From assembly GCA_001303705.1 (NCBI GenBank), contig LJUI01000010.1, forward strand, positions 193 to 64,192: a stretch of DNA of 64,000 nucleotides, written 5' to 3'. Under the pieces are notes generated by a model. That model was not told the origin of the DNA. It worked only from the letters and a program-made list of their open reading frames with translations, and searched no databases. The position numbers were made by a program, and so were the translations under genes. Origin of the DNA: a candidate division TA06 bacterium SM23_40 (GTDB lineage Bacteria; LJUI01; SM1-40). Below are positions 3,229 to 37,917 of this stretch, in pieces (position 1 is the first letter of the stretch; every line of letters begins with the position of its first letter).

Positions 3229-4299
3229 CTATGCTCGGTCTTGCGTGATCGAATCGGGATTCAGAAGAAACCCGACATCTACGAGCTCGGCGCTGAATTC
3301 AACCAGTAATCTGGCGGCCCCCTCCACGTCAGCTGTGGCTACCACCTCTGCGGAGGTGTGCATATAACGAACGGGAATCCCCACGAGCGCCGTAGGCACC
3401 CCCTCACGCGTCAGCTGAATCGCGGCAGCATCTGTGCCCCGTGGGCGCGGCTCCGCCTCGTCCTGAATGGGGATCCCCTCTCTCTCCGCCGTCTCCATGA
3501 GACGGGCACGCAGCCGGGGATGATATCCCGGTCCCACCCCGAGGGTCGGTCCTCCGCCGAGTTCATACGTCTCGTACTTATCGACTCCGAGCATATCACC
3601 GTACGTGACATCGAGTACGACCGCGAGGCCGGGATCGAGCCCGTAGGCGCTGACGGTCGCCCCGAGATGCGCGATTTCCTCCTGGACCGTGGCGACTGCG
3701 TAGATATCCCACCGATGGTCCCGCCGGGCCAACTCCTCCACGGCGAGCACAAGGGCTGCCAGGCTTGCGCGGTCATCAAACGCCTTCGCCGCGCACAACC
3801 CCCCTTCCATCTCCATGAACTTCCGCGATAGGGCGATGGGATCGCCGGTCTTGACACGACGTCTCACAGTCCGCTCGGTGAGCCCGACATCTATGAATAG
3901 ATCTTCGATCTCTACTACCCGATCTTTCTCTTCTTCCAGCTGCAAATGAGGGGGTTCGGACCCGATCACTCCCGGCAGCCGCTTCTCACCATGAACCATG
4001 ACCTCCTGACCGGGAAGTACTCTCGGATCGATCCCGCCGACAGCGGCAAAGCGCAGCACACCGCCGCGGTCAACCTTCCTGACGATGAGGCCGATCTCAT
4101 CGGCATGTGCCGTCAGAAGCAGCCTCCCGCCATCTTCGCTACCCGGGAGGAGCGCGATTCGATTCCCGACGCGATCGACCTCAACCACGGCCCCGGCAGA
4201 TCGCATTTCCTCCTCGACGACCTTCCCGATCCCCGCCTCGAACCCGCTGATGCCGTCACTTTCACTCAGCCTCTGGAGCAACTCTATAGTCCGACCCAC
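3229..4299 (-). CDS. M42-family aminopeptidase paralog 3
   Basis: 356 aa. Motifs TAHADEIG, AFDDRASL, TVQEEIAHLGA, VRYMHTSAE. Confidence 0.88.
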   Translation of the reverse strand: MGRTIELLQRLSESDGISGFEAGIGKVVEEEMRSAGAVVEVDRVGNRIALLPGSEDGGRLLLTAHADEIGLIVRKVDRGGVLRFAAVGGIDPRVLPGQEVMVHGEKRLPGVIGSEPPHLQLEEEKDRVVEIEDLFIDVGLTERTVRRRVKTGDPIALSRKFMEMEGGLCAAKAFDDRASLAALVLAVEELARRDHRWDIYAVATVQEEIAHLGATVSAYGLDPGLAVVLDVTYGDMLGVDKYETYELGGGPTLGVGPGYHPRLRARLMETAEREGIPIQDEAEPRPRGTDAAAIQLTREGVPTALVGIPVRYMHTSAEVVATADVEGAARLLVEFSAELVDVGFLLNPDSITQDRA

Positions 4300-6887: not shown

Positions 6888-8888
6888 TCAACCGGGCCCC
6901 CCTGTTTCACGTGAAACATCCACATCCGATCGATCACAGCCCGCCGACCGAACCAGCCGATCGACGTGCACTAACAGCAGTGAGATGTCCGCAGGGGTGA
7001 CTCCCGATATCCGGCTCGCCTGCCCGATGGTGCGCGGCATGACCGCTCTCAGCTTCTCCCTTGCCTCGGTCGATATACCTCTGAGGCTCGAGTAGTCGAT
7101 CCACCCGGGAATCGCCCGCTCCTCCAGGTCCCGAAGCCGCTGGACCCGGTCGTTCTGCCGGGCTATGTACCCCTCGTACTTCACGGCCACCTCCACCCGC
7201 TCACTCACTTCCCGGGGCAGGCGCCGCGAACACTCGTCTATCTTCCTCAGATCGGGGTACGTTACCTCAGGCCGCCTGAGAAGCTGCGCCAGGCTCTCGG
7301 GCTCGGCGAGTTCACGGGATCCTACTGCCTTCAGAAGTTCGTTCGATTTGGCCACCGTGGGCCTGGTGCGCTCCAGTCTTCGCCGCTCCTCATCGACGCC
7401 CCGCCGCAGCGCATCCAGGGCTTCCATTGCCCGCCCGGAGATGAGGCCGAACCGGTGCCCGTAATGCATGAGCCGCTCATCGGCGTTGTCGTGCCGCAGC
7501 AGCAGGCGATACTCAGCCCTGGAGGTGAACATACGATAGGGCTCCCCGGTGCCCTTCGTCACAAGGTCGTCGATGAGAACGCCGATGTAAGCCTCCGACC
7601 TCCGGGGCACGAACGGCTCCTCGCCCTGCAGCCGGAGCGCTGCATTGATGCCGGCGACGAGGCCCTGGGCCGCCGCCTCCTCATATCCTGAGGTGCCATT
7701 GATCTGCCCCGCGAGGAAGAGGCCGGTCAGGCGCTTCGTTTCGAGCCACGGCTGGAGCTGCGTGGGGGGAACGAAATCGTATTCGATCGCATAGCCAGGC
7801 CTCAGTATCTCCGTCCGCTCCAACCCCGGAAGTGTCCGCACCATCGAGAGCTGCACATCCTCCGGCAAAGACGATGAAAGCCCGCTCAGATAGTACTCGT
7901 GCGTTGCCCTCCCTTCCGGCTCCAGGAAGATCTGGTGACGCCCCTTCTCCGGGAACCTGACGACCTTGTCCTCTATGCTCGGACAGTACCGGGGCCCGAT
8001 GCCCTCGATCCTCCCGGAGAACAGGGGAGAGCGATCGAGATTTCGACGGATGATCGCATGCGTCTGGTCTACCGTGTAGGTGACATAGCAATCGAGCTGT
8101 CCCCTGAGGAATCCGGGAAGGGACAGGGTCTCCCCTTCCTTCAACATAGTACAGGCCTCTCCCGCATCTGCCTCTTCCCCCTCGGGGCGCAGCGTCCGGT
8201 GCGAGAAGACCCGCGGGTCAGAATCGCCTGGCTGCCGCTGTAACCGGCTGAAATCTACTGTCTTCCCGTCGATGCGGGGCGACGTCCCCGTCTTCAGCCG
8301 GCCCAACTCCAACCCCAGCCGCCTCAACCTGCTTGACAGCCGGGAAGCAGCGAACTCTCCAGCGCGCCCCGCTCTGTAGGTCGACAAGCCTATATGTATC
8401 AGACCATTAAGGAATGTCCCCGTGGTCAAGATGACAGCCCCTCCCCGATATCTCATGCCTCCGAGCGTTCCGATCCCCACCACACGACCTGCCCGTGCGT
8501 GCACCGTCTGAACCAGACCCTGCTTGAGGTCCACGCCCGCCTGTCTGTCGATGCACAGCAGCATCTCTCTCCGATACAAACGCTTATCGGATTGGACCCG
8601 CAGGGCCCGGACCGCAGGCCCCTTCTTTGTGTTGAGCATGCGGAACTGGATCCCGGTCGCATCGGCGACCCTTCCCATCTCTCCGCCGATGGCGTCTATC
8701 TCTTTAACCAAGTGGCCTTTAGCGACTCCACCGATAGACGGATTGCACGACATCTGGGCCACGGTGTCGATATTGAGGGTCATGAGGAGGACGCGCATGC
8801 CCATCCTGGCGGCGGCAAGGGCAGCCTCACACCCGGCATGACCCGCGCCAACCACAATCACATCGTAGGTCTCAGGATAGATGGGCAC
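6888..8888 (-). CDS. mnmG: tRNA uridine 5-carboxymethylaminomethyl modification enzyme MnmG (GidA)
   Basis: FAD motif [23 protein letters not shown]. Preferred start is GTG 8888 (giving [14 protein letters not shown]), with GGGAGA upstream. Alternative starts are ATG 8921 and 9005. Contains an insertion of about 25 aa ([27 protein letters not shown]) relative to the E. coli protein as I recall it. Confidence 0.93.
6903..6918. promoter_or_regulatory. parS: parS centromere site, perfect 16-bp palindrome TGTTTCACGTGAAACA
   Basis: Exact match to the canonical parS consensus. It lies inside the last codons of mnmG (..VSRET..), 1.7 kb from parB. Confidence 0.9.
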
Positions 8889-20669: not shown

Positions 20670-22010
20670 ATGCAACTGCCGAATGCTCAGAAACTGTGGG
20701 AGGAAACGCTCTCCCTTATTCAGGGAAGCGTGAATGGACAGAGTTTCGAGACGTGGTTCAAACCCACGCGCGGCCGGACCATCGATAACAGGGTTCTCTC
20801 GGTCGAGGTGCCGAGTCCGTTCTTCGCCGATTGGCTAGAAGAACACTACATTCAACTTATCGAAGAGGCTGCCTCTCGCGTGGCCAAGGCAAGGCTCGGA
20901 ATCTCGTTTGCCGTGGCGAAGCCCGATGGTGCCGTTCCACAATCCACGCTGCGGCGCCGCGTTCGTGCCAAGACTTACTCCGTAGACGATTCCCAACTCC
21001 ACGATCGTTATACCTTCGAGACCTTCATCGTCGGAAAGGGAAATCAATTCGCCCACGCGGCGGCTCTTGCCGTCGCGGAGGCGCCGGCTACCACATACAA
21101 TCCCCTCTTTGTGTACGGGGGAGTCGGCCTGGGCAAGACACATCTCCTGCAGGCCATCGGCAACTTCGTCAAGATGAGCTCACCCACTGCCAAAGCCTAC
21201 TACACCTCGGCCGAGAATTTCATGAACGAGATGATTCATTCCATACAGAATCGCACTACTCTCGAATTCAAGAGGAAGTACCGCTCCAATGACCTGCTCC
21301 TGATCGACGACATTCATTTCCTCGCAGACAAGGTGAGCCTGCAGGAGGAAATCTTTTACACATTCAACGCTCTCCACGAGGCAGGGAGGCAGATCGTCCT
21401 GACGAGCGATCGTCCGCCGAAAGACATCCCCTCTCTCGAGGAGCGCCTTGTGTCCCGTTTCCAGTGGGGACTTGTCGCTGATATCCAACCTCCCGACCTG
21501 GAGACGCGTACTGCCATTCTACGCAAGAAGGCAGATCGCGACGGCATCGCCATTCCTCACGACGTGACACTGTACATCGCGACCAAAGTCAAATCTAACA
21601 TCCGTGAACTCGAAGGATGCCTGATCCGCCTTCTCGCCTTTTCTTCTCTCTCCGGCCGTGAGATAACTGTCGAGCTGGCCGAGGAGGTTCTCGAAGATAT
21701 CATCGCAGACTCGTCTCCTCCGTTGAGTGTGCAACGCATTCAGTCTGTAGTCGCCGATCACCATGGAGTTTCCGAGGAGGCGCTACGCGGCCGCCGTCGG
21801 ACTGCATCAATCGCCCTCCCGCGCCAGATTGCCATGTACCTCTGCCGGAAGCTGACGAATCTCTCTCTGAGCGAAGTGGGCGCACAGTTCGGCGGCAAGG
21901 ATCACACGACGGTGCTCCACGCGTGCGACAAGATAGAGAGACGCCGCAACGTAGACCGTCCGTTCGATGCAACCATCCAGAGTCTCGAGCGACGCCTGAC
22001 ATCTGGATAG
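20670..22010 (+). CDS. dnaA: chromosomal replication initiator protein DnaA
   Basis: 446 aa. AAA+ Walker A YGGVGLGKTHLL, box VII, and C-terminal DNA-binding domain (..FGGKDHTTVLHACDKI). Confidence 0.97.
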   Translation: MQLPNAQKLWEETLSLIQGSVNGQSFETWFKPTRGRTIDNRVLSVEVPSPFFADWLEEHYIQLIEEAASRVAKARLGISFAVAKPDGAVPQSTLRRRVRAKTYSVDDSQLHDRYTFETFIVGKGNQFAHAAALAVAEAPATTYNPLFVYGGVGLGKTHLLQAIGNFVKMSSPTAKAYYTSAENFMNEMIHSIQNRTTLEFKRKYRSNDLLLIDDIHFLADKVSLQEEIFYTFNALHEAGRQIVLTSDRPPKDIPSLEERLVSRFQWGLVADIQPPDLETRTAILRKKADRDGIAIPHDVTLYIATKVKSNIRELEGCLIRLLAFSSLSGREITVELAEEVLEDIIADSSPPLSVQRIQSVVADHHGVSEEALRGRRRTASIALPRQIAMYLCRKLTNLSLSEVGAQFGGKDHTTVLHACDKIERRRNVDRPFDATIQSLERRLTSG

Positions 22011-22259: not shown

Positions 22260-23378
22260 ATGGAGATACTCATAGCGCAAGAGGTTTTGACAAAGGTCCT
22301 GACGACCGTACTCCACGTAATCCCTGCCCGTACTACATTTCCGGTGCTGTCAAACATCCTGTTGGAGACTGAGGATGGAAAGATACGCGTCTCGGGCACC
22401 GACCTAGATGTGGCAGTTACGACGCAAGTGGAGGCGGAGATCAAGAGGCCAGGGGCGATCACCCTTCCCGCACGGCGCCTCGGGGAGATAGCGCGTGAGT
22501 TGCCGAAGCAGCCGGTCCGAATCGTATGCGAGGGAGAGCAGGCTGAGATCATCTGCCACCGGTCGAAGTTCCGGGTGTCGGGGATGGCGAAGGAGGAGTA
22601 TCCGGAGTTGCCCCCCCTTCCCACAGAGAGCGGTTTCCGCGTGCCTGGCAGTCTCATAGAGCGAACTGTCAACAAAGTAGCGTTCGCGGTTGCAGGCGAT
22701 GAGGCGCGGCCGGCCCTGTGCGGAGCACTGTGTCAGATCGCAGAGGGCACAATCCGATTGGTGGCGACTGACGGACATCGGCTTGCCCTCGTGGAGCGGA
22801 AGGGGCTGCCCGGGTTGCCGAAGAAACTGGAGGCGATCGTCCCGCGGAAAGCTCTGACAGAGGTAATCAGAGTGCTGGACCCGGAGAGCGAGGTAGAGAT
22901 CCGAGTCGATTCCGGACGGATAGGAATCTACCTCGGGGAAACATCCATCACCGCGCGGCTCATCGAGGGTCCGTTCCCGGACTATCGACAGGTCATTCCG
23001 AAAGAGAATCCGAACAGGGTTCGAGTTGAAGCCGGCGAACTCACCGCGGCGCTACGGCGGGTGGCGATCTTCTCAAGTCCCCATACTCATCTCGTCCGAA
23101 TGTCGCTGGGAGGAGAAGGGCTGGAGCTATTCGCTGCGACTCCCGATATCGGTGAGGCGAGAGAGAAAGTGGCATGTGAGTACGGCGGAGAGGATATGGA
23201 TGTCGGGTATAACGCCAGCTATCTTCTAGAGATACTGCGCAATGTTGGCAGCGACCAGGTGCAAATGTCACTCAGCACGCCGCTGTCGGCTGGCTTAGTG
23301 ACGCCGGAAGAGCAGGAGCAGGGAGAAGAGCTGCTCTACCTGTTGATGCCCATCAGGCTATCGGAGGCTGTGGAATGA
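22260..23378 (+). CDS. dnaN: DNA polymerase III beta sliding clamp
   Basis: 372 aa with typical three-domain clamp sequence (..ATDGHRLA.., ..LLMPIRL). Confidence 0.96.
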   Translation: MEILIAQEVLTKVLTTVLHVIPARTTFPVLSNILLETEDGKIRVSGTDLDVAVTTQVEAEIKRPGAITLPARRLGEIARELPKQPVRIVCEGEQAEIICHRSKFRVSGMAKEEYPELPPLPTESGFRVPGSLIERTVNKVAFAVAGDEARPALCGALCQIAEGTIRLVATDGHRLALVERKGLPGLPKKLEAIVPRKALTEVIRVLDPESEVEIRVDSGRIGIYLGETSITARLIEGPFPDYRQVIPKENPNRVRVEAGELTAALRRVAIFSSPHTHLVRMSLGGEGLELFAATPDIGEAREKVACEYGGEDMDVGYNASYLLEILRNVGSDQVQMSLSTPLSAGLVTPEEQEQGEELLYLLMPIRLSEAVE

Positions 23379-23638
23379 GCAGATAGCGATGCAGTGAACG
23401 TCACCGAATCCTGCCGCACCTACCTCCTGCCACTGCACTTCTGCGTGCCCACTCCCGGAACGATAGCCGAACATTCCACATGGTGCTCCCTCACCGAGTA
23501 CTACCATGTCGAGGCGGCCACTACTTGCTCGTAACCGGCTGCCCATACCGGTTGCAGGGAGTGGCAACCCTGTCTTGCGTGAGGAGCGGGGAACTAAGAA
23601 CCCGGAACACGATGGACACCACAAGGGGGGAGGCGGAG

Positions 23639-26395
23639 ATGAAGTGCGCGATGAATAGCTTCTGTCCGCTGTCAGGCCCCGGGCTTATTGTCGTGCTCGC
23701 GCTCGTTATCTCGCAGTCGGTTTGGGCTGACGTACGGGTGAATGACGATCCGCCCGGGCAGAGACAGGAGACGACGAGAGCCGATAGGGCGGTTGCCGTT
23801 GACGAGTCGGGCGCGATCCATGTCGTCTGGTCGGATCACCGGTCGGGCGACTCAGCTAGTGATATCTACTATGCCTCATCGGTCGACGGAGGGCTCTCGT
23901 TCAGCGCGAACGTGCAAGTGAACACAGAGAGCGGTGATCTCTGCGCTCATCGGGAGGCCGCCGTTGCCGTCGGGACTGACGGAGGGATCTGTGTCACATG
24001 GATCGAAGAGACGGCGGGGAGCGGGGGTACACTCCAGTGGAGAGTTCTGTTTGCCAGATCTACAGAGGGTGAAGAGAGATTCTGCGAACAGGTTCCCGTG
24101 AGCGATGAGGCCTGGTCGTCTGCCTGGAAGCGCGCTCCTTCCATGGCGGTAGACGCTTCGGGCAACATCCATATCGTCTGGGAGGATGCGCGCGATGGGA
24201 CGCGCCAGACCTATTCTTCGGTGTCGAGCGATGGCGGGTTCGAATGGACCACTGATGAGCCGGTAGCCCATGTGCCCGGAGCGACGAGTGCGTACTCGAT
24301 CACGCCATCAATAACATTCGATCCGATGTCGGGACTGGTGGCCGTCGCGTACTATGCGAAGTTTCGGTACGCTCCAGAGGGTGAAGGAGGAGGGGGTACT
24401 GCACCGACCGTGTATGTGAGTCGATCGACGGGGCTCGGCTCGGGGTTCGAGCATGCCGTTCAGGTTGCGGATGTACAGGCACAGGATAGTCTCAGCTGCC
24501 CCTCGATTGGAGCGGACGGTAGGGCGAAGCTGTATGTCGCTTGGAGCGACCGCCGGAACGGGGACTACGACATCTGGGTCTCGGGATCGACCGATGGCGG
24601 AGCGAGCTTCGAAGAAGATGTGCTTATCAGCGACGATCTAACCGGGAGCGAGCAGCTCCTTCCCTCGGTCTCGGCAGGGAACGTGGACGGGCAGCCGGAT
24701 AGCCGGGCGGTGGTCTGGGTCGGATATTGCGATCGACGAAGCGGGGACTGGGAGTGCTATCTCGCTCGGTCATTCAACAGCGGCCAGAGCTTTGGGCCGA
24801 GCCGTCGTCCGTACTCCACAGCGGTGCCGGGTCCACGCATACTCCCCTCGATCCATGTCGATGCATCGAATGCCGCGCACTGTGTGTGGACCGACCGACG
24901 CGAAGATGCCGGAGATATTTACTATCATCGGACAGTCCGTTGTTTCCTCATCTGGGACAACGATAGCGGAGTGACGTTCAACGATCCGGATGCCCAGTGG
25001 CAGAGTCTCTACTGCTTGTCGGGGCTGCATGAGACCACCTCTCCCGAGGCGGAGCTCGGGCAGGCCCTGGCTCTGGCCGACCCGGCGGCGATGGTGGTTA
25101 CCAGTGTCCAGGATGCCGATCTCGGCGAGTACGATCTCCGAGACTACGATGCGGTATTTGTCGCGCTCGGCTGGCGACCGGAATCGCTGAGTTGCGGGGG
25201 AACGATCGAGTCGACGGAGGCATCGCAGCTGGTCGAGTACCTCAAGGTGGGAGGGGGGGGGTTCTGTGAGGGGAATGACGGATTCGAGCAGTACTCGCAG
25301 CCACCCGATACGCTCGATTCCCTCTTCGCGCACTACTTCGGCGGAATCCTGGCCGATACCTCAGTCGGCCAGGTCGACTCGATCGTGGGGCAGGCGGGTA
25401 CTGTCTTCGGGGGACTCCGATTCGTGTACAGTTCCAATGACCTCGGGCCGCACACATCGATCGATGTGATAGACGCGCTGCCAGGATACGGCAGTGAGGT
25501 CTTCTCCGCAGGAGTGAGCGACGCCAGGTTGGGGAATGGGCTCGGCATCCGGTCGGTTCGATACAAAGCTATCTACTTCTCTTTTGCCCTCGGTGCGCTC
25601 GAGAACCAGGGGGTGAATACGAAATCCGAAGTAATAGAAAGAATTCTAGATGTGCTGTGTCCTGATCGGCCCTACATCGAACTCGACATCGAGGGAGATG
25701 TGAGCGAACGAGAGGCGGTCTCCTATTGTCCAGGGGATTCTCTGGCTCTCACCTATCTCATACGTAACTGCACGGACGAGAAGTTCACCGGCAGCCTCCA
25801 CCTCGTCCTGAGAGGCGGGCCGTCAGCCAGCCACTACATCGCCTCGGAGGCGTGCACTGTGGCGGCGCGGGACAGCCTGATGGGATCCCGTCACGGCGAC
25901 GCGATCCCGATGGGAGTGATCCCTTCGGACAACTACCGGCTCGTAGGATACGTCTCCTATTCCCCTGATCCCCAGAGCATCGTCAAAGGACCCGTTCTGG
26001 CGGAGGATGATTTCCACGTTATCATCTTCTCGCCTGTGTCGACGAGCCTGATACCGGATGCTTTCCCCACAATCATACCCCCGGGGGGCGGGGAGGTGGG
26101 GTACACTGCGGTATTGCGGAACGCGGTCGATCGGGACGTCACAGTAGATGTGTGGACAGCAGTTCTCGGGCCCGTTGGGCCGATCATCGACCCGGTGTTC
26201 GGGCCGCATACGGTCGCGATAGGCCCGCTGGACTCTCTCTCCCTTCATCGGGTGGACGTTGTGCCGGGCTGGGCCCCTACGGGCATGTACTGCTATTGCC
26301 TCAATTCCGGGATCAAGCCCATGGGGGGGCTCTGTAGGCGAGAGTCGGCCGCGATCTGGACCCAGGCATGTTTCGAGGCCTATAAGTTGCCCTAG
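23639..26395 (+). CDS. secreted BNR/Asp-box repeat (sialidase-like beta-propeller) protein with central ThuA/DUF4159-like region and C-terminal beta-sandwich module
   Basis: Start at ATG 23639 with GGGAGG upstream. Signal peptide MKCAMNSFCPLSGPGLIVVLALVISQSVWA. Asp-boxes SVDGGLSF, SSDGGFEW, STDGGASF, SFNSGQSF. The C-terminal ~100 aa is shared with two other proteins in the window. Confidence 0.8.
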   Translation: MKCAMNSFCPLSGPGLIVVLALVISQSVWADVRVNDDPPGQRQETTRADRAVAVDESGAIHVVWSDHRSGDSASDIYYASSVDGGLSFSANVQVNTESGDLCAHREAAVAVGTDGGICVTWIEETAGSGGTLQWRVLFARSTEGEERFCEQVPVSDEAWSSAWKRAPSMAVDASGNIHIVWEDARDGTRQTYSSVSSDGGFEWTTDEPVAHVPGATSAYSITPSITFDPMSGLVAVAYYAKFRYAPEGEGGGGTAPTVYVSRSTGLGSGFEHAVQVADVQAQDSLSCPSIGADGRAKLYVAWSDRRNGDYDIWVSGSTDGGASFEEDVLISDDLTGSEQLLPSVSAGNVDGQPDSRAVVWVGYCDRRSGDWECYLARSFNSGQSFGPSRRPYSTAVPGPRILPSIHVDASNAAHCVWTDRREDAGDIYYHRTVRCFLIWDNDSGVTFNDPDAQWQSLYCLSGLHETTSPEAELGQALALADPAAMVVTSVQDADLGEYDLRDYDAVFVALGWRPESLSCGGTIESTEASQLVEYLKVGGGGFCEGNDGFEQYSQPPDTLDSLFAHYFGGILADTSVGQVDSIVGQAGTVFGGLRFVYSSNDLGPHTSIDVIDALPGYGSEVFSAGVSDARLGNGLGIRSVRYKAIYFSFALGALENQGVNTKSEVIERILDVLCPDRPYIELDIEGDVSEREAVSYCPGDSLALTYLIRNCTDEKFTGSLHLVLRGGPSASHYIASEACTVAARDSLMGSRHGDAIPMGVIPSDNYRLVGYVSYSPDPQSIVKGPVLAEDDFHVIIFSPVSTSLIPDAFPTIIPPGGGEVGYTAVLRNAVDRDVTVDVWTAVLGPVGPIIDPVFGPHTVAIGPLDSLSLHRVDVVPGWAPTGMYCYCLNSGIKPMGGLCRRESAAIWTQACFEAYKLP

Positions 26396-26661
26396 GCCCC
26401 GACTGCCTCGTTCTGGCGGTTCATTGCACCCCCTCACTACACCCCTGGCAGCCTTCTTCCGGGCTGATCGCCCAGCGGAAGAGCGGCAGCCAGGGGTCTG
26501 TCATGAGACTTCGGTTAGGGGGGACATATCATTGCCTGCGAAATTCTCAGAAACTAAAAAGGAGACGCGGTGGCCTGTGTCTCCAGGGTCTGGAGACACC
26601 ATGTGGCAGCGTTCCCGGCGCCGCAAGCCGGGGGCGTGAGGAGGAGGTGCGGAATCGAGCA

Positions 26662-26690
26662 TTGACATTCTCGGGCGAAAACAGTATGCT
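26662..26690 (+). promoter_or_regulatory. sigma70-type promoter TTGACA-N17-TATGCT for the kinase gene
   Basis: TTGACA at 26662-26667 and TATGCT at 26685-26690, 66 nt upstream of ATG 26756. Confidence 0.55.
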
Positions 26691-26755
26691 CGTGGGGAGA
26701 CCGGGCACGTGGTCTTATCATTGTATGAGAAGTTCCCAGATATCGGGGAGGCCAG

Positions 26756-28564
26756 ATGGGAGCGGTTGTCGGGGGTCGGTACGAGCTGACAGAGGTCGCT
26801 GGAAGCGGGATTGGCGGGATAGTATACAGGGCGGTCGACCGGCTCACGGGGCGTGTAGTAGCGCTGAAGGCGGCACGGCACCTTGGTCTCTCCGCAGAGG
26901 AACCGGAGGACGTTGGCGGAGAAATTCTGCCGCCGGCTGCACTGGGGGCGCGGCTCCGGGACGAGTTTCGGACTATGGCCCGGCTCACCCATCCCAACAT
27001 CGTGCGTGTGTACGACTTCGGCGAGACCGGATCCGGAGCGCCGTTCTTCACGATGGAATTCGTGGAGGGAGGGTCGATCATCGACGCGTGTTGGCGCGAT
27101 GACATCGATGGATTAGTCTGTCTCGTGCTGGGAGTCTGTGATGCTCTCGATTACGTCCACGAGAAAGAGATTGTGCACGGTGATCTGAAGCCGGGCAACA
27201 TCCTCGTCAGCAGGGATACTCGTGGCCCCGGGGTGGTCAAGCTAACCGACTTCGGCCTCGCACGCTACGTAACGGAGATGGTGGAGAATAGAGCGCTCTT
27301 CGGCACAATCCCGTACCTCTCTCCCGAGGCGATCGCCGGAAGACCGTGCAATGGCAGGTCCGATCTCTATTCGCTGGGCGTCATCCTGTACCAGGCTCTG
27401 GCCGGGAGCCTGCCGTTCGAGGGGAGTTGGCGCGACATACTTGACCAACATCTCCATCGGCCTCCACCTCGGCTCCACGAACGCGCTTCCCATGTCTCCG
27501 TCGAACTCTCGGAGATCGTGGGACGATTGCTGGAGAAATCGCTTGCCCGCCGTATCCACTCCGCTGCAGCGCTTTCCTCTGAGCTTCGTGCGATTCTGGA
27601 GGAAAAAGGTAGTCGACTATTGCGTAGAGGCCGCGAGCTGGGTGACGGCGACTTTGTCGGGCGCGAGGCGGAGCTGGAACAGCTGAAGGAGATCGCGCTG
27701 AGGGCGCGGGGTGGAGCAGGGCAGGTGGCGGTTATCACGGGGGAGGAAGGTATCGGGACGACGCGTCTCCTTCGCGAGTTCATGAGCTGGGCGCAGGTGC
27801 AGGGATTCTTTGTGATCGACGTGATGCAAGAGCGCGGAGCGGACGCGGCAGATTCGCTGGTGCGCGGGCTGAGGCGGTCTGAGGGGCTGGCGGAGACGCA
27901 GCTATCGGCCGCGGCGGAGGCAGACCTCGATGCCATCGGCGAGCTTCTCCAGCACGCATCGGAGCGGGTCCCCATTGCGGTGATCATCGACGAGTTCGAT
28001 CGCAGTGATGCAGTCTCCGCGGGGATACTCCACTATGCAGCGAGGAGGACGACAGATCTGCCGGTGATGATCTGTGTGGGCGTAAGCCACAGAGGCGAAG
28101 GGGAGGTATCATCGGATGCACTGGACAACGTCGAGGAGATACCCGGGGCCACAGCGATCCACCTCACCGGTCTGGAACGGGAGGAGATCCGTCGTCTCGT
28201 GGGGTCAATGGCGCGGTGCCGGGTGGTGGGCAAGGAACTTGTCCGCCTCCTTGAGTCGAACACGGGGGGAAACCCGCTGCTCGTCAAGGAGTGCCTGAAG
28301 AGTCTTGCTTCCCGTGGGGCGGTTTGGTTCGAAGAGGGTGAATGCGATCTCGTGGCAGGGGAGCATGAGATCGTCGCTCCCCCGTCGGTAGAAGAGGCCG
28401 TGCTCGCCCGCCTTCAGGGGATGAGCGGGGCTGCGAGAGAGGTCGCTGAACTCGTGGCAGTGGCGGGCGGTCGGTGCCACCTGGGTGCCATCGCGGACCT
28501 GGTAGGATTGGGAGAGAACGTTCGTTCTGAGGCGCTTGCCGAACTGGCGAGCAAGCAAGGATGA
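26756..28564 (+). CDS. Ser/Thr protein kinase fused to AAA_16/STAND-type NTPase domain (N-terminal part of a split gene?)
   Basis: Kinase motifs GSGIGGIVY, VALK, HGDLKPGNIL (non-RD), DFGLA, SPE. Then GREAELEQL..VAVITGEEGIGTTRLL (Walker A with Thr in place of Lys) and Walker B VAVIIDEFD. Confidence 0.88.
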   Translation: MGAVVGGRYELTEVAGSGIGGIVYRAVDRLTGRVVALKAARHLGLSAEEPEDVGGEILPPAALGARLRDEFRTMARLTHPNIVRVYDFGETGSGAPFFTMEFVEGGSIIDACWRDDIDGLVCLVLGVCDALDYVHEKEIVHGDLKPGNILVSRDTRGPGVVKLTDFGLARYVTEMVENRALFGTIPYLSPEAIAGRPCNGRSDLYSLGVILYQALAGSLPFEGSWRDILDQHLHRPPPRLHERASHVSVELSEIVGRLLEKSLARRIHSAAALSSELRAILEEKGSRLLRRGRELGDGDFVGREAELEQLKEIALRARGGAGQVAVITGEEGIGTTRLLREFMSWAQVQGFFVIDVMQERGADAADSLVRGLRRSEGLAETQLSAAAEADLDAIGELLQHASERVPIAVIIDEFDRSDAVSAGILHYAARRTTDLPVMICVGVSHRGEGEVSSDALDNVEEIPGATAIHLTGLEREEIRRLVGSMARCRVVGKELVRLLESNTGGNPLLVKECLKSLASRGAVWFEEGECDLVAGEHEIVAPPSVEEAVLARLQGMSGAAREVAELVAVAGGRCHLGAIADLVGLGENVRSEALAELASKQG

Positions 28565-30356
28565 GATAGCTGACGACCTGGCGTACCACTGGCTGGGCGC
28601 AGGCGATCGGGAGATGGCACGGTGGTACTTGGCGCAGGCCGGGGATCGCGCCTGTGGCGCGCACCTTGTCCGCAGGGCGATCGGTCTGTTTGAGCAGGCC
28701 CTTGCGCTCGGTCCTTCGCCGGCCGAGCGGGCTCCGCTCGAGGAGAAGGTGGGAGATCTGCAGGCCCTGTGCGGGAGGACGTCGAACGCGCTTGCTAGCT
28801 ACGCTCAGGCCCGGTCATCCTATTGCGCCGCGGCGGGTGGTTCATGCGAGGCAGTGGTCGATCGGGCGCGCCTGTTCCACAAGAGCGGCAGGCTGTGCGA
28901 AAGAAGGGGTCAGGCCTGGTATGACGATGCGGAGGAGTCCTATCGGAAGGCGCTAGATCTGTACGAGAGCGCGAGTCACGTGGCAGGGGCAGCAGGCGTG
29001 CGCATCGATCTCGGCTGGCTCAGTTCCCAGCGCGGTGAGCACGAGCAGGGCCTGCGCATGTGCGAGAGGGCCCGGCAGATCCTGGCTGAGCGCGACGAGG
29101 AGGAGCTGGCGCGGGCGCTGACGGCGATGGGGCTCATCTACCTCAAGATCGGCGAGGTCGATGCCGCGGCACGGTGCCTTCATCAGAGTCTCGAGGTTGC
29201 TGAGCGAAGTGGGGACGGGAGGGAACTCGCGCGGGCACATCACAATCTCGGCATGTCATATCTCGACACGGGCGACTGGCGGCGTGCCGTCGACGAGTTC
29301 GAGCGCGCCATCGCCATTCAGGAAGAACTCGGGAATGTCGGGGCGGTTGCGAGATACACGAATAGTCTCGGTGCGTGTCTTGTCGAACACGGGGAATGGG
29401 ACCGCGCCAGGCAGGTGCTTGAGCGTGCTATCGTTCTCGGGAGACGGTGCGAGAACGTATCGTACGTCAGGAGGGCGACGAGGAACCTGGGAGCTGGGTA
29501 CTATCTCCGGGGGAGAGATCTCGAGCGTGCGGCGAGATGCTACGAGGAATTTCTCTCCCTGGAGGAGACGCCGCAGGCGCGGGCGCGCACCATGCTTCTC
29601 CTCGGCGCGATCTACTACGAAAAGGGCGAATGGGATCGGGCGGTTGGTCACTACGTGCGGGCGCTTCGTCTCTCCGCGAGACACGCCGAGCGCGAGCGGA
29701 TGGGAGGAATATACTGCAACCTGGGGGTCCTCTATGGGAAGAGGGGGGATCGGCGGAGGGCGACCGCGTGCTTCTCCAAGAGCCTCGCGCATGCGCGTCT
29801 GATTCAGAACGATAGTCTAACGGTTGGAGTCACGTGCAGCGCCGCGGAGACGTACATGAGGTGGGGAGATCTGGATGCCTCGCGACAGCTGTTGCAGCAA
29901 GCGAGAGCTGTGGCCGAATGCGGCCCGATGGAGCGCGATTTGGCCGAGATCGAAATGAGGGAGGCTGAGCTCGCCGTTCAGGAAGGGCGGGCGGACGATG
30001 CACTCGCGCTCCTCTCCCGAGCACGGGAGAGTGCAGAGCGCGGCGGGGATCGCGTGTCGGTGGCTATCTGTGCTCGGCTCGAGGGCAGGACATATGCGTT
30101 GAAGGACGTGTGGGAGCGAGCGGCCCAGCGCTTCGAGGAGAGCATAGAGGGACTGAGTGGAGCGGAATCGATCCATGAGCTGGCGCTTACATTCATGGAG
30201 ACTGCTGTCTTCAAATGGCGGTATGGCTACGTCGAGGAGGCACTCGAATTGATGGGTCGTGCACATGAGATCTTCTCCCGGCTCGGGGCGGTCCCCGACG
30301 CGGAGCGATCACAACTCTATCTGGGCAGGTGGAAAGATGAAACAGACCAGGAGTGA
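28536..30356 (+). CDS. TPR-repeat protein (C-terminal part of the kinase-STAND-TPR architecture)
   Basis: Opens in a different frame, overlapping the previous ORF by 29 nt, with only a TTG start. Its first conserved residues (DEIADDLAYHWLGAGDREMARWYL) normally sit in the interior of STAND-TPR proteins. More than 10 TPR-like repeats follow. Confidence 0.75.
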   Translation: MPNWRASKDEIADDLAYHWLGAGDREMARWYLAQAGDRACGAHLVRRAIGLFEQALALGPSPAERAPLEEKVGDLQALCGRTSNALASYAQARSSYCAAAGGSCEAVVDRARLFHKSGRLCERRGQAWYDDAEESYRKALDLYESASHVAGAAGVRIDLGWLSSQRGEHEQGLRMCERARQILAERDEEELARALTAMGLIYLKIGEVDAAARCLHQSLEVAERSGDGRELARAHHNLGMSYLDTGDWRRAVDEFERAIAIQEELGNVGAVARYTNSLGACLVEHGEWDRARQVLERAIVLGRRCENVSYVRRATRNLGAGYYLRGRDLERAARCYEEFLSLEETPQARARTMLLLGAIYYEKGEWDRAVGHYVRALRLSARHAERERMGGIYCNLGVLYGKRGDRRRATACFSKSLAHARLIQNDSLTVGVTCSAAETYMRWGDLDASRQLLQQARAVAECGPMERDLAEIEMREAELAVQEGRADDALALLSRARESAERGGDRVSVAICARLEGRTYALKDVWERAAQRFEESIEGLSGAESIHELALTFMETAVFKWRYGYVEEALELMGRAHEIFSRLGAVPDAERSQLYLGRWKDETDQE

Positions 30357-31935
30357 GGCAAACGAATGGTGGGCTGGACGTGAGGAGACGATCATCTACT
30401 CTCCCAAGGTGCCTATGGATAAGGAGCGGCTCGTGACTCTCTATCAGGCGGGGAGAACCGTGGCCTCGCTCTGGGAGCTGGAGAAACTCCTGGCGCGCCT
30501 GATGGATCTGGTGCTCATCACGCTCCCCGCGGAGAGAGGATTGATCCTGCTCGCGGGCAAGGACGACGGGGATCTGGCCGTAGAGGCGGCGCGAAATGTC
30601 GGGGGAAAGACGATCGAAGACGCCGCCGACTTCAGCCGGACGGTTGTGACCCTGTCGGTGGATGAAGCGAGGGCAGTCTATTCGCGCGATGCACAGAGGG
30701 AATTCAGCATGTTCGAGAGCATCGTGGAATACAAGATTATCTCATTCATATGCGTTCCGCTCAAGCTCCCCGAGCAGGTCATCGGGGCGATCTACGTAGA
30801 CAGCCGCGACCCGACGAAGGTCTTCACATCGGACGACGTCGATTTCCTCGCATCGCTGGCGTACATGGCAGCCCCTGCGATCGGGAGTGCGCGGCTCCAT
30901 GGAGAGAGAACGGAGGAGATCGCCACGCTTCGCTCCGCTCTTCGCACGAGGGATCGCTCAATAGTCGGGCGTAGCCCTGCCATCGGTCGGGTGCTCGACA
31001 GCATAGCGCGGGTGGCGAAGAGCAATGTCTCGGTCGTCATCAGTGGGGAGAGTGGGACGGGGAAGGAGTTGGTGGCGCGCGCGATCCATATGACTGGTCC
31101 CCGGGCGAGCAAGCCATTTGTGCCGTGTAACTGTGCCGCGATACCGACAGATCTGCTCGAGAGCGAGCTCTTCGGGTACAAGCGAGGAGCGTTTACCGGA
31201 GCCATCCGGGACAAGAAAGGTCTGTTCGAGGAGGCGGACGGGGGCACGCTGTTCATGGATGAGATCGGGGATCTCAGTTCGTACACCCAGGCGAAGCTCC
31301 TGAGAGTCCTCCAGGAAGGAGAGATCCGACGAGTCGGTGATACGGAGCCGCGGCGGGTCGACGTGCGGATCATTTCCGCGACGAACAAAGATATCGAGAA
31401 AGAAGTCGCCGAGAAGAGGATCAGGGAAGATCTGTACTATCGGCTCAATGTCTTCTCGATTCACATACCCCCGCTCCGTGACAGGCCGGAGGATATTCCC
31501 CTTCTCGTCGATCATCTTCTCCGGGATGCGGACGGTAAGCGACGGAAGGGGATAACTCCTTCTGCTCTCGACCTTCTCTGTCGCCAGCGGTGGCCGGGCA
31601 ATGTGCGCGAGCTGGAGAACGTCATCGAGCGCGCCATCGTGCTGGCCGATGAGGACATGATTGCGGTTGAGCATCTTCCCGACCTGTCTCTGCCCGACGG
31701 GCTGAGGATCGATCTCCACCAGACGCTGGAGCGGATCGGACAAGAAGGGAAATGCCATGCCATCGAACGGGGAATCCGGGCGGCCTTGGCCGCGACGGGG
31801 GGCGATATGCGTGCGGCGGCGGACAGGCTCGGCGTGGGGCAATCTACTCTCTACCGGTGGTGCCACAAACTGGGCATTGAGCGGGGCCGGCGCCCCTACC
31901 GGAGGAGTGGGAATGAGCGACACGAGAGGACTTGA
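30337..31935 (+). CDS. sigma-54-dependent transcriptional activator (GAF-AAA+-Fis HTH)
   Basis: GAF-like N-terminus, Walker A GESGTGKELVARAIH, GAFTGA loop, ESELFGY and C-terminal HTH (AAADRLGVGQSTLYRWCHKLGI). Start is ATG 30337 (overlaps the TPR stop by 20 nt) or ATG 30415. Confidence 0.92.
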   Translation: MKQTRSEANEWWAGREETIIYSPKVPMDKERLVTLYQAGRTVASLWELEKLLARLMDLVLITLPAERGLILLAGKDDGDLAVEAARNVGGKTIEDAADFSRTVVTLSVDEARAVYSRDAQREFSMFESIVEYKIISFICVPLKLPEQVIGAIYVDSRDPTKVFTSDDVDFLASLAYMAAPAIGSARLHGERTEEIATLRSALRTRDRSIVGRSPAIGRVLDSIARVAKSNVSVVISGESGTGKELVARAIHMTGPRASKPFVPCNCAAIPTDLLESELFGYKRGAFTGAIRDKKGLFEEADGGTLFMDEIGDLSSYTQAKLLRVLQEGEIRRVGDTEPRRVDVRIISATNKDIEKEVAEKRIREDLYYRLNVFSIHIPPLRDRPEDIPLLVDHLLRDADGKRRKGITPSALDLLCRQRWPGNVRELENVIERAIVLADEDMIAVEHLPDLSLPDGLRIDLHQTLERIGQEGKCHAIERGIRAALAATGGDMRAAADRLGVGQSTLYRWCHKLGIERGRRPYRRSGNERHERT

Positions 31936-31992
31936 GATTTCTATTGCGGGGCGGTAGAAAGGCCGATACAATAGAATTGAGGGAGGAATGCC

Positions 31993-33105
31993 GTGCGACT
32001 CACCTCACTCCTTGCGAGGAACTTCCGGAATCTTGAGGAGCTTCACCTCTCCTTCGACGCACAGAGGAACCTGCTCATCGGCAAAAATGGGGCGGGCAAG
32101 TCGAATGTCCTCGAGGCCATCTACTACCTCTGCGTATCCCGTTCTCCACGAGGGGCCCTTGATGGTGAGCTTGTGAGGTGGGGAGCGGATTTCTTTCATC
32201 TAGAAGGTCGGGGAGAGAGGCGCAGGGGGCCATTCGAAGTCACGGCAACGGTACGCGGCGGCCAGAAGGAGGTCGGATTCAACGGTGTCCGGCTCGCCAG
32301 GATATCGGAGCTGGTCGGCGAGATAGCCGTCGTCAGCCTGTCGCAGGATGACACGAAATTGACAAAGGGCCCGCCCGGCCAGCGCCGCCGCTTTCTCGAT
32401 ATCGCCGTCTCTCAGATATCGCGGATCTATCTTCAGATGTTGAATGACTATCGACGGACCCTGCAACAGCGTAATCGTGTGCTGCTCGTGGCGCGAGAGA
32501 GCGGGGGGGTGCGTGCGGAGAGCCTCGAGCCGTGGGATGAACAGCTCGTCTCCCTGGGCGCCAGGATCATCGTGGAACGGCAGTCTGCGATGGAGGAATT
32601 GGCGCCGCGCGCGATCGCATTGTATGGCCAGCTGGGAGGAGGTCGCGATTCTATGGATCTTGTCTACGCCCCCACTGTTGGGGACGGGACCGGAATGAGC
32701 GGAGATGAGCTGGCCAATGAGTTCCGCGATAAGCTCGTACGGACGAGGAGGGCTGAGATCGAGCGGGGACAGACACTGGTTGGTCCTCACCGTGACGACA
32801 TTGAGGTAGCAGTTGGGGGGCGGAATCTGCGTACCTACGGTTCCGAAGGGCAACACCGGAGTGCGGCCATCGCACTTCGCCTCGGAGAGGCGGATCTGCT
32901 GCGCAGGCATATCGGAGAGGACCCCGTCTTTGTCCTCGATGAGGTCTTTTCCGAGCTCGACAGGGACCGGGCAGGTGCCCTGGTGACGATATTGGAGGAG
33001 TGGGAACAGATATTCCTGGCGACGACGAGGAGCGATAGCATCGAGGCAAGGGATCTGGAGGCGGCGACGTTTCTGCTCGAGGACGGGGCGTTCGTCGAAG
33101 GTTGA
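31993..33105 (+). CDS. recF: DNA replication and repair protein RecF
   Basis: GTG start with GGGAGG upstream. Walker A GKNGAGKSNVLEAI and signature ..SEGQHRSAAIALRL.., ..VFVLDEVFSELD. Confidence 0.95.
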   Translation: MRLTSLLARNFRNLEELHLSFDAQRNLLIGKNGAGKSNVLEAIYYLCVSRSPRGALDGELVRWGADFFHLEGRGERRRGPFEVTATVRGGQKEVGFNGVRLARISELVGEIAVVSLSQDDTKLTKGPPGQRRRFLDIAVSQISRIYLQMLNDYRRTLQQRNRVLLVARESGGVRAESLEPWDEQLVSLGARIIVERQSAMEELAPRAIALYGQLGGGRDSMDLVYAPTVGDGTGMSGDELANEFRDKLVRTRRAEIERGQTLVGPHRDDIEVAVGGRNLRTYGSEGQHRSAAIALRLGEADLLRRHIGEDPVFVLDEVFSELDRDRAGALVTILEEWEQIFLATTRSDSIEARDLEAATFLLEDGAFVEG

Positions 33106-33106
33106 G

Positions 33107-35334
<2,228 letters not shown>

Positions 35335-35457: not shown

Positions 35458-37917
35458 TTGATGGCGATTCGTCGCGAAAAGGTTGTCCCGGTAGATATCG
35501 AAGATGAGATGAGAACTTCCTATCTCGACTACGCCATGAGCGTGATCGTAGGAAGAGCTCTGCCTCGGGTGCGGGACGGACTGAAGCCCGTCCATCGAAG
35601 AATCCTCTTCGCCATGCGGGAGCTGGGGCTGGCCTCCAACCGCCCATACAAGAAGTCGGCGGCGGTGGTGGGGGATGTGTTGGCCAAGTACCATCCCCAC
35701 GGGGATGGCGCCGTGTACGATGCGATCGTACGTATGGTCCAGGATTTCTCGTTGCGCTACCCACTCATCGATGGTCAGGGGAACTTCGGATCGGTAGATG
35801 GTGACGCGGCGGCTGCGTATCGGTATACGGAAGTGCGGCTCACTCCGATAGCAGAGGCGATACTGGCTGACATAGATAAAGAGACAGTTGACTTCATCTC
35901 CAACTATGATGCAAGCCGCGAGGAACCGACGGTCCTCCCGTGTGGAATTCCCAACCTGCTGGTGAGCGGCTCATCCGGGATCGCAGTAGGGATGGCGACA
36001 AACATCCCGCCTCACAACCTGGGAGAAATCGTCGACGCGCTGATTGCATTGATCAAAAATCCCGAGATAAACACCTCGAAACTGATGAAACATGTCCACG
36101 GCCCGGACTTCCCCACCGGGGGCATTGTCATCGGTGCAAAAGGCATCCGCGATGCATATGAGAGCGGCAAAGGGCGACTAGTCGTGAGGGCGCGAGTAAG
36201 TGCTGAGACGAGGAAGGGGGGACGCGAACGGCTCGTCATCAGCGAGATCCCGTACCAGGTCAACAAATCGGTTCTCATCGAGCGGATCGCCCGGCTCGTG
36301 CGGGATCGGAGGATCGACGGCATCACCGATCTGCGCGATGAGTCAGATAGAGATGGAATGCGTATCGTACTCGAACTGAAGCGCGATGCGCAACGGGAGG
36401 TGATTCTCAACCAGCTGTACCGGCATACGCAGATGCAGGACACGTTCGGGGTCATTATGCTCGCCCTCGTGGATGGCCAGCCGCGTGTGCTCAATCTGAA
36501 ACAGATGCTCGAGTTCTTTCTCGAGCACCGACATGAAGTGGTAGTGCGGCGGACGAAGTTTGAGCTCGACAAGGCGGAGAAGCGAGCTCACATTCTGGAA
36601 GGGCTCAAGATCGCGCTCGACCACATCGATGCCATTGTCACTCTGATCAAGAAATCGCGCACCCCCGAGACTGCCAGGCAGGGCCTGGTGAAGGAGTTCA
36701 AACTGAGCGAACTGCAGGCTCAGGCGATCCTGGACATGCGTTTGGCCAGGCTCACGGGACTGGAGCGCAAGAAGGTCGATGAAGAGTATCTCGAGATCAT
36801 CAAGCTCATCGCAAAGCTCAAGTCGATACTGGCAAGCCGGGCCGCGGTGATGGAGGTCGTCAGGGCGGAGCTGCTCCAAGTGAAGAAGCGGTTCGCTGAT
36901 GATCGCCGCACTGAGATCGTAAGCGAGGAAGAGGAGGAACTGACGGTCGAGGACCTGATTGCTGAGGAGGACATGGTCGTCACGGTCTCCCACCGGGGAT
37001 ATTACAAGCGGATGGCAGTGAATGCCTATCGGCGTCAGGGGCGTGGCGGCAAGGGGATGATAGGAGTCCTCACGAGAGAAGATGACTTCGCCGAGAGCCT
37101 CATCGTTGCGTCGACACACCACTATATTCTCTTCTTCACCGATCGGGGGCGGTGCTACTGGCTCAAGGTGCATGAGATAGTGGAGGGAGGGAGACTGGCG
37201 AAGGGGCGGGCGATCACGAACATGCTGGCACTGGGCCAGGGTGAGGCTATTACGGCCTACGTGCCGGTGAGAGATTTCATGGGCGGTGGGTATCTGGTGA
37301 TGGCAACTAAGAACGGGCTCGTGAAGAGGATCGCCCTATCCGAATTCTCGCATCCGCGCCGCACAGGGATCCATGCGGTGACGATACGCGAGGGGGACTC
37401 GCTCATCGAGGTGAAGGCCACGGATGGCTCACAGGATGTCATGCTCATTACTCACTTGGGGAAGGCAATTCGGTTCCACGAGTCAGAGGTCCGTCCTATG
37501 GGACGTTCGGCTGCCGGCATCAAGGGCGTATCGCTGAGAAAGGGCGATGAGGTCGTTGGCATGGTAGCGGTGAAGCGGCAGGCGAGCCTTCTCATCGTAA
37601 CTGAACGGGGGTACGGGAAGCGGACAGCGATCGCTGACTACCGCGTGCAATCGCGCAGCGGCTTGGGGCTGATAACGCTGAAGGTATCGGAGAAGAACGG
37701 CCCCATCGTTGCCGCGCTCGAGGTGGTGGAGAGCGACGGGGTGATCATCATGTCGTCTCAGGGGCAGGTAATCAGGATCGCGGTGAGCGACATACGGGAG
37801 ATGGGGCGGAGCACGCAGGGGGTGCGCCTTATCGACATCGAGCGGGGAGATCGGGTCTGCGATGTCGCCAGAATCGTGAGCGAGGAGGGTCCGGAGTCCT
37901 CATCGGACAGCAGCTAG
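35458..37917 (+). CDS. gyrA: DNA gyrase subunit A
   Basis: 819 aa. ..[27 protein letters not shown].., active-site region [11 protein letters not shown], and C-terminal beta-pinwheel repeats. Confidence 0.97.

Follow-up and report, generated by a model that had tools for sequence, protein, structure and literature searches.

The stretch of DNA considered here, which we call the window, comprises 64,000 nucleotides (nt) from candidate division TA06 bacterium SM23_40 (GenBank assembly GCA_001303705.1, contig LJUI01000010.1, positions 193 to 64,192 of the forward strand), and coordinates given without a contig prefix are positions within it. Between dnaN and recF, in the cluster dnaA-dnaN-recF-gyrB, it carries an 8.6-kb island of three genes, which encode a putative secreted propeller protein, a Hanks kinase with a STAND NTPase and tetratricopeptide repeats (TPRs) that we refer to as the sensor, and a GAF-domain sigma-54 enhancer-binding protein (EBP). 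We have found that the sensor and the EBP each correspond to one half of a protein family whose members elsewhere, and twice in this genome, are made as one polypeptide. The island is made up as follows.

23639..26395, + strand: predicted secreted Asp-box (BNR-like) propeller protein, 918 amino acids (the mechanical open reading frame (ORF) is 23480-26395, 971 amino acids)
26756..30356, + strand: sensor gene, encoding a non-RD Hanks kinase, a STAND NTPase (AAA_16) with a degenerate P-loop, a winged helix and TPRs (Pfam)
26756-28564 and 28536-30356, + strand: the two ORFs in which the sensor appears in this assembly, the first with Pkinase and AAA_16, the second dense in TPR/TPR_MalT matches
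28551..28552: site of a 149-nt gap relative to sister assemblies
30337..31935, + strand: EBP of 532 amino acids with GAF, sigma-54 AAA+ and HTH_8 domains (Pfam, including AAA_lid_14; ORF from 30259)

The 2.88-Mb genome holds five kinase-STAND-TPR/GAF-EBP modules, the window copy included. Two of them (C4:7529-13021, 1830 amino acids, and C147:5223->10124; range 1630-1830 amino acids) carry kinase, STAND, TPR, GAF, AAA+ and HTH domains in one polypeptide, and both window halves are homologous to these fused proteins by tblastn, alignment and tree. On the overlapping contigs C138 and C96 a sensor gene is followed after 24 nt by the GAF-EBP gene, with GGAGG between them, and on C149 the order is reversed, with the EBP leading and the sensor following after 48 nt. 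Every GAF-EBP of the genome is linked to a kinase-STAND-TPR gene (5/5), whereas none of its 13 other EBP genes shares a contig with a Hanks kinase. We also note four tandem Hanks kinase paralogues on a single contig (C157:7467-16722), with no EBP nearby.

The same association recurs outside this genome. GAF and Sigma54_activat occur in the same chain in 22 of the 120 best sensor homologues, and the fused proteins, which include members from Planctomycetes and Acidobacteriota, are named in databases 'sigma 54-interacting transcriptional regulator' or 'Nif-specific regulatory protein'; in other sensor homologues the output at the end of the chain is GGDEF, a cyclase or a histidine kinase. We sampled seven stand-alone EBPs homologous to that of the window (43-47% identical; L039, L041 and L043-L047) from Gemmatimonadota, KSB1 and further metagenomic lineages outside its phylum, and all seven share their gene string with a Pkinase(-PEGA) gene, which follows the EBP directly in five cases and in two overlaps its stop codon. 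The same strings usually encode a CarboxypepD_reg-like protein as well, and proteins with type IX secretion system (T9SS) tails or propellers are often found near. In a tree, the kinase-linked GAF-EBPs all fall in a single clade (100/100), separate from nine receiver-type EBPs of the genome and with split and fused forms interleaved; the outgroup contained no classical NifA, NorR or FhlA, so that the clade may simply be 'GAF-EBPs'.

A functional link between sensor and EBP is strongly supported by these sequence comparisons. The original prediction had proposed that a kinase/STAND/TPR module feeds the GAF-EBP by an unconventional route to sigma-54 control. That the module feeds the EBP is supported by the fusions, by adjacency and overlap in two relatives (L016 and L017, described below) and by the contrast between the two classes of EBP within the genome, and the co-occurrence that it proposed to check extends to the fused homologues and to the kinase neighbours of the stand-alone EBPs. 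The word 'unconventional' stands only in part, because proteins of the fused architecture abound in public databases, where they carry an annotation.

The EBP contains a sigma-54 activator domain (PF00158, 241 bits) in which Walker A (GESGTGKE), Walker B (LFMDEI), the GAFTGA loop and the arginine finger (RVDVR) are complete, and it ends in an HTH_8 domain (25.7 bits against a cut-off of 22). As originally described, Pfam finds no receiver domain in it and no histidine kinase adjoins it. It is not a NifA equivalog (398.9 for TIGR01817, against a cut-off of 528.85); its neighbours are dnaN and recF, and no nif genes lie nearby. The sensor stop codon (30354-30356) and the EBP start codon, the ATG at 30337, overlap by 20 nt, as had been noted, with the EBP in another frame; the overlap is 29 nt in L016 and 4 nt in L017. 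AGGTGG stands 4-5 nt before the EBP ATG in both the window and L016. The public gene call starts the EBP at Met27 (30415; 506 amino acids). However, the EBP is 83% identical to its L016 orthologue with the first 26 residues included, and because those residues and the ATG with AGGTGG are kept in L016 and Met27 is not, we place the start at ATG 30337.

We considered whether the TPR/EBP junction might be a frameshift of a fused gene and ruled this out, since the stop and the overlapping ATG are kept in L016 and L017. The window sensor and EBP are thus not one polypeptide, a stop lying at the homologous place in both relatives. The pair bears the sequence marks of translational coupling (overlap, internal Shine-Dalgarno sequence and conservation), and the two genes are probably coupled.

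L016, a Logan contig, carries dnaA', dnaN, the propeller gene, the kinase-STAND-TPR gene and the GAF-EBP gene in the same order as the window, and its DnaN is 83% identical to that of the window. The synteny comparison that the original prediction called for therefore recovers the same island order together with the overlap of TPR stop and EBP start. In L017, which represents a third lineage, the EBP is 54% identical and the stop of the TPR gene again overlaps the EBP start, and no recF lies behind the EBP, which argues that the sensor-EBP pair is older than its placement at the origin. L016 and L017 are the only informative relatives and were reached through protein-cluster look-ups; a genome search at the level of the phylum found only the genome itself, and the best match in a DnaN scan of genome and metagenome contigs was 42% identical, from Latescibacterota.

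The genes on either side of the island are the following.

20670-22010, + strand: dnaA (Pfam)
22260-23378, + strand: dnaN, the left border of the island, complete with three DNA_pol3_beta domains
31993-33105, + strand: recF, the right border, with an SMC_N match at residues 3-48 and 315.6 bits for TIGR00611, 57 nt past the EBP stop
33107-33433, + strand: dciA, between recF and gyrB and overlapping gyrB (PF05258, 76 bits)
33403-35334, + strand: gyrB (Pfam), with gyrA next, also on the + strand

The coordinates and Pfam assignments bear out the claim that an 8.6-kb island splits the dnaA-dnaN-recF-gyrB cluster, with all genes in the spacer between dnaN and recF co-oriented on the + strand. The sign of the GC skew changes near 22 kb, placing the origin of replication within the window, and it follows that the genes from dnaA to gyrB, the island included, are all on the leading strand. 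Among 20 unrelated genomes that carry recF, 13 have it directly next to dnaN and the other 7 have the two genes unlinked, and a gap of 1-10 kb between them occurs in none of the 20. Because no genome of that set has an intermediate gap, a stable 8.6-kb insertion that leaves the downstream cluster intact is unusual.

We find no sign that the island is a mobile element or was recently acquired. No tRNA gene lies near it within 15-40 kb, no repeats were found flanking it, no mobility marks (an integrase included) occur in or beside it, and its GC content (0.60-0.64) is that of the genome (0.603). With the gene order kept in L016, a mobile or recent origin is ruled out, in agreement with the original view that this is no recent mobile insertion. 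We read the island as an old unit of three genes, passed on vertically in this TA06 lineage, whose wiring is ancient rather than novel. A cluster as rigid as dnaA-dnaN-recF-gyrB can therefore tolerate a stable 8.6-kb insertion, whose position has been kept across at least two lineages.

The kinase domain of the sensor (PF00069, 143.6 bits) has its GSGIGG, VALK, HGDLKPGN (non-RD), DFG and SPE motifs all intact. The STAND and TPR regions score 49.4 bits for AAA_16 and 73.8 bits for TPR_MalT, and a winged-helix segment is present in sister assemblies. Alignment with the paralogues shows that about 50 amino acids of this winged helix (Y-x-F-x-H...R..LH) are missing from the window exactly at the frame change between the two ORFs. 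The nearest database protein, AMJ71_10665 ('candidate division TA06 bacterium SM1_40'), differs by one residue, contains the missing segment and is encoded by a single ORF. Contig SMTZ1_10027693 (L015, ~4034-4182) contains 149 nt that are absent from the window after 28551, and contig LIZS01000012.1 (L018) has the 149 nt at 7989-8137; both sister assemblies are 99.9% identical to the window and encode the sensor as a single ORF of 1249 amino acids. Since 149 is not a multiple of 3, the gap produces the frame change. The L016 orthologue is likewise intact, at 1251 amino acids and 50% identity. The kinase/STAND and TPR ORFs belong to a single gene, and this assembly alone shows it interrupted. 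The domain make-up first proposed for the island has thus been upheld by Pfam and motif searches, whereas the count of four genes has to be reduced to three, although the TPR ORF had already been called a continuation.

We note that another sister assembly, L019 (GCA_001304185.1), has a private 101-nt out-of-frame gap in the essential gene gyrA (window 37721-37820 against L019:7921). Given this second private out-of-frame gap, we take such gaps to be artefacts of assembly or scaffolding, and the 149-nt gap is probably an artefact of this sort rather than a real deletion in the strain. It seems that these sediment metagenome-assembled genomes contain private gaps of 100-150 nt which, being out of frame, can pass for split genes, and this should serve as a warning to others who read gene structure from them.

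The propeller protein has four Asp-box-like motifs (S/T-x-D/N-x-G-x-x-W/F) and an N-terminal hydrophobic signal by motif check, and its matches to BNR_2 (26.8 bits, cut-off 31.4) and BNR_4 (21.8 bits) both fall below the Pfam cut-offs. Its start is most likely the ATG at 23639, which yields a signal peptide, is preceded by GGAGG and fits the L016 orthologue; that orthologue lies at the same position, is also 918 amino acids long and is 63% identical. The protein is otherwise nearly an orphan in database searches, and no PDB sequence matches it. Its C-terminal ~140 amino acids (26105-26395) have no Pfam match and show the motif ..VP..AP.G.Y.Y..; this domain is common to several secreted proteins of the genome (C4:15715-15996, C149:4959-5375, C68:7593-7877 and ORFs on C96), and some of its carriers adjoin other kinase/EBP modules. 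The domain may serve in sorting or anchoring and be specific to the lineage.

Upstream of the sensor gene lie a promoter-like sequence and two candidate operators.

26662..26690, + strand: sigma-70-like promoter TTGACA-17-TATGCT before the sensor gene, matching 10 of 12 consensus positions
26537..26549: candidate operator 1, the 13-bp near-palindrome TGCGAAATTCTCA, in a block conserved in L016
26726..26738: candidate operator 2, the 13-bp near-palindrome TGAGAAGTTCCCA, between the promoter and the sensor start codon

At the aligned positions L016 has TTGACA-17-TAGGCT and, in place of operator 2, the perfect palindrome CTGAGAAGTTCTCAG. Sites within one mismatch of TGAGAA-N-TTCTCA number seven in the whole genome, which is the chance expectation; the occurrence of two such near-palindromes within 190 nt of each other, flanking the promoter and both conserved in L016, is not chance. 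We regard the pair as candidate operators, possibly for the HTH domain of the EBP itself. An EBP regulon could not be called from the palindrome, because the number of its copies is at chance and no copy has a strong sigma-54 site within 400 nt. The segment 26559-26600 falls in an alignment gap relative to the L016 intergenic region and is hence not conserved. Between the EBP and recF there is no terminator-like site.

The genome has a working sigma-54 regulon. As the original prediction had proposed to check, rpoN is present (at C101; TIGR02395, 434 bits), and a genome-wide scan finds 21 perfect TGGCAY-N5-TTGCW sites against 1-4 in shuffled sequence. Several of these sites stand in front of genes whose products are type IV pilin-like proteins, response regulators or secreted proteins. 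None of the perfect sites is on the contig that holds the window, and the sequence TGGCAA-N7-TTGC upstream of the propeller gene was rejected as a sigma-54 promoter for its wrong spacing.

Our best explanation of the whole, to which we give a probability of about 0.62, is that this is an old three-gene island in which a cytoplasmic sensor gates a NifA-like EBP that is coupled to it in translation and complexed with it, the apparent split of the sensor being an artefact. Sensor and EBP would be co-transcribed on one mRNA driven from the sigma-70-like promoter, and translational coupling would deliver them in fixed proportion. They would then associate in a complex at their TPR and GAF ends, which in the fusions are linked covalently, and the sensor would gate either the assembly of the EBP ring or its ATPase, by binding, by Ser/Thr phosphorylation or by both, serving the EBP as a dedicated partner much as NifL serves NifA, after which the active EBP could open sigma-54 promoters outside the island. 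As our literature search found no experiment on the family, it is we who infer the binding, the phosphorylation and the sign of control.

Several observations weigh against this explanation. The island intergenic DNA contains no GG-N10-GC site of any quality, and nor does that of L016, so that the earlier statement that the island lacks a sigma-54 promoter stands; the fused paralogue on C4, in contrast, has a perfect sigma-54 promoter (TGGCACAGGTCTTGCT, at C4:13465) directly after its gene. The Walker A motif of the sensor lacks its lysine (GEEGIGTT in the window and GEEGIGIS in L016, against GEVGVGKS in the C4 paralogue), and of all parts of the sensor the NTPase domain is conserved least, with 42% identity between the window and L016 as against 67% for the central TPRs; the loss of the P-loop lysine in both orthologues, together with this low identity, makes it unlikely that this copy works as a classical STAND switch driven by nucleotide. 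If the 149-nt deletion were real in this strain, it would mean a broken sensor, and the literature search turned up no experimental study of any member of the family, fused or split. As regards output, the gene behind the C4 promoter (C4:13567-16065) encodes a secreted protein with CBM96 and FG-GAP domains and is the probable target of the fused paralogue; a second perfect site lies at C4:17080. A good sigma-54 site also precedes a beta-propeller gene behind the EBP in L017. By analogy, the targets of the window EBP are probably secreted or surface proteins encoded outside the island.

The form of control could also differ from the one we favour. It is possible, though we think it rather unlikely, that control is purely catalytic: the kinase would phosphorylate Ser/Thr residues of the GAF-EBP, as a counterpart of NtrB acting on NtrC, with no stable complex, and the STAND and TPR regions would only sense. 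The intact catalytic motifs of the kinase (GxGxxG in its glycine loop and the others listed above) are in keeping with this, and so is the finding that Pkinase-PEGA kinases with neither STAND nor TPR accompany the same EBP clade in all seven of the other loci, since a different kinase architecture beside the same clade makes the kinase domain the common denominator. On the other hand, the TPR end joins GAF directly in the fused proteins and the gene overlap suggests stoichiometric synthesis, both of which fit a physical complex, and in the GAF alignment no invariant Ser or Thr stood out beyond the structural motifs as a conserved phospho-acceptor. We put forward a broader reading tentatively, as being doubtful in its full extent. 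According to it a clade of GAF-type EBPs, in FCB-group phyla and beyond, would use Hanks kinases as dedicated sensors in the manner of NtrB and NtrC, the kinase being a Pkinase-PEGA protein of the membrane or else an NLR-like kinase-STAND-TPR protein of the cytoplasm; in the STAND branch, oligomerisation of the sensor would serve directly as template for the AAA+ ring, whether the two are fused or are split and coupled in translation, and the TA06 copy at the origin would be a nucleotide-independent, P-loop-dead switch.

A different objection concerns whether the window sensor works at all. Were the 149-nt deletion real, the sensor would be a fresh pseudogene, consisting of a kinase/NTPase stub and a TPR piece that is either untranslated or translated separately, and the EBP would act partnerless, being constitutive or inactive. 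There is no repeat flanking the gap that an assembly would collapse, single-nucleotide polymorphisms separate the window from both sister contigs and so point to a separate population or assembly, and no gene of the island evolves faster than that of the sensor (50% identity, as compared with 83% for the EBP). We nevertheless consider such a pseudogene unlikely, given that two independent assemblies of the same species and a more distant orthologue are intact, that both halves are still long open frames and that the similar private gap in gyrA of a sister assembly points to a recurrent artefact. Finally, the genes of the island might be neighbours with no functional link that have accumulated by chance in a permissive gap after dnaN. 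The island does lack a sigma-54 promoter or an obvious common target, and nothing demonstrated ties the propeller gene to the sensor or the EBP. For the sensor/EBP pair, however, this idea is already contradicted by the fusions, by the conserved overlap, by the 5/5 against 0/13 distribution and by the kinase neighbours of all seven stand-alone EBPs, and we regard it as highly improbable. The data on gene neighbourhoods suggest, moreover, that pairing with a kinase is a general property of this EBP clade.

In the textbook picture, sigma-54 activators are controlled by receiver domains, by ligand-binding domains or by anti-activators, and we know of barely any documentation of their control by eukaryote-like Ser/Thr kinases. 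The nearest relatives of the island are the fused proteins, which have the same kinase, STAND, TPR, GAF, sigma-54 AAA+ and HTH_8 domains in the same order, with EBP parts that fall in one clade. In the window, by comparison, the chain is cut between TPR and GAF with an overlapping stop and start, the STAND P-loop has lost its lysine (GIGTT), and there is no adjoining sigma-54 promoter of the kind found directly downstream of the C4 gene. A literature search found no published study of the family in either its fused or its split form.

Among characterized systems, NifL-NifA of Klebsiella and Azotobacter offers the closest worked-out analogy. NifL has a kinase-type nucleotide-binding domain, yet acts by binding. 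As in the window, an activator with GAF, AAA+ and HTH domains has its sensory partner encoded immediately upstream in the same operon, and nifL and nifA are translationally coupled (Govantes et al. 1998, reviewed in PMC12548453). The two systems differ in that the partner in the window is a Hanks kinase/STAND/TPR protein and not a PAS/GHKL protein, and in that the EBP scores below the NifA equivalog cut-off. In its sequence the sensor presumably has its closest kin in PknK-type kinase-STAND proteins, and PknK of Mycobacterium tuberculosis acts on the transcription factor VirS. PknK and other kinases of Pkinase/AAA_16/MalT-like TPR architecture share with the sensor an N-terminal Hanks kinase, a STAND NTPase and a TPR sensor region. 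The window sensor differs in having as its partner a sigma-54 activator, which comes from the same putative operon or, in fused relatives, is part of the chain, in lacking the Walker A lysine and in its non-RD kinase. In Myxococcus xanthus, FHA-domain EBPs are reportedly linked to Ser/Thr kinases (Jelsbak et al. 2005). Such proteins resemble the island in that Ser/Thr-kinase signalling reaches sigma-54 activators in place of a histidine kinase and receiver; the window EBP differs in having no FHA domain, its sensory domain being GAF, and in having its kinase adjacent or fused. The island, therefore, is a split, P-loop-dead, origin-cluster form of a widespread and database-annotated regulator family, and this natural split, into two separable proteins of 1249 and 532 amino acids, makes it the form most easily approached by biochemistry.

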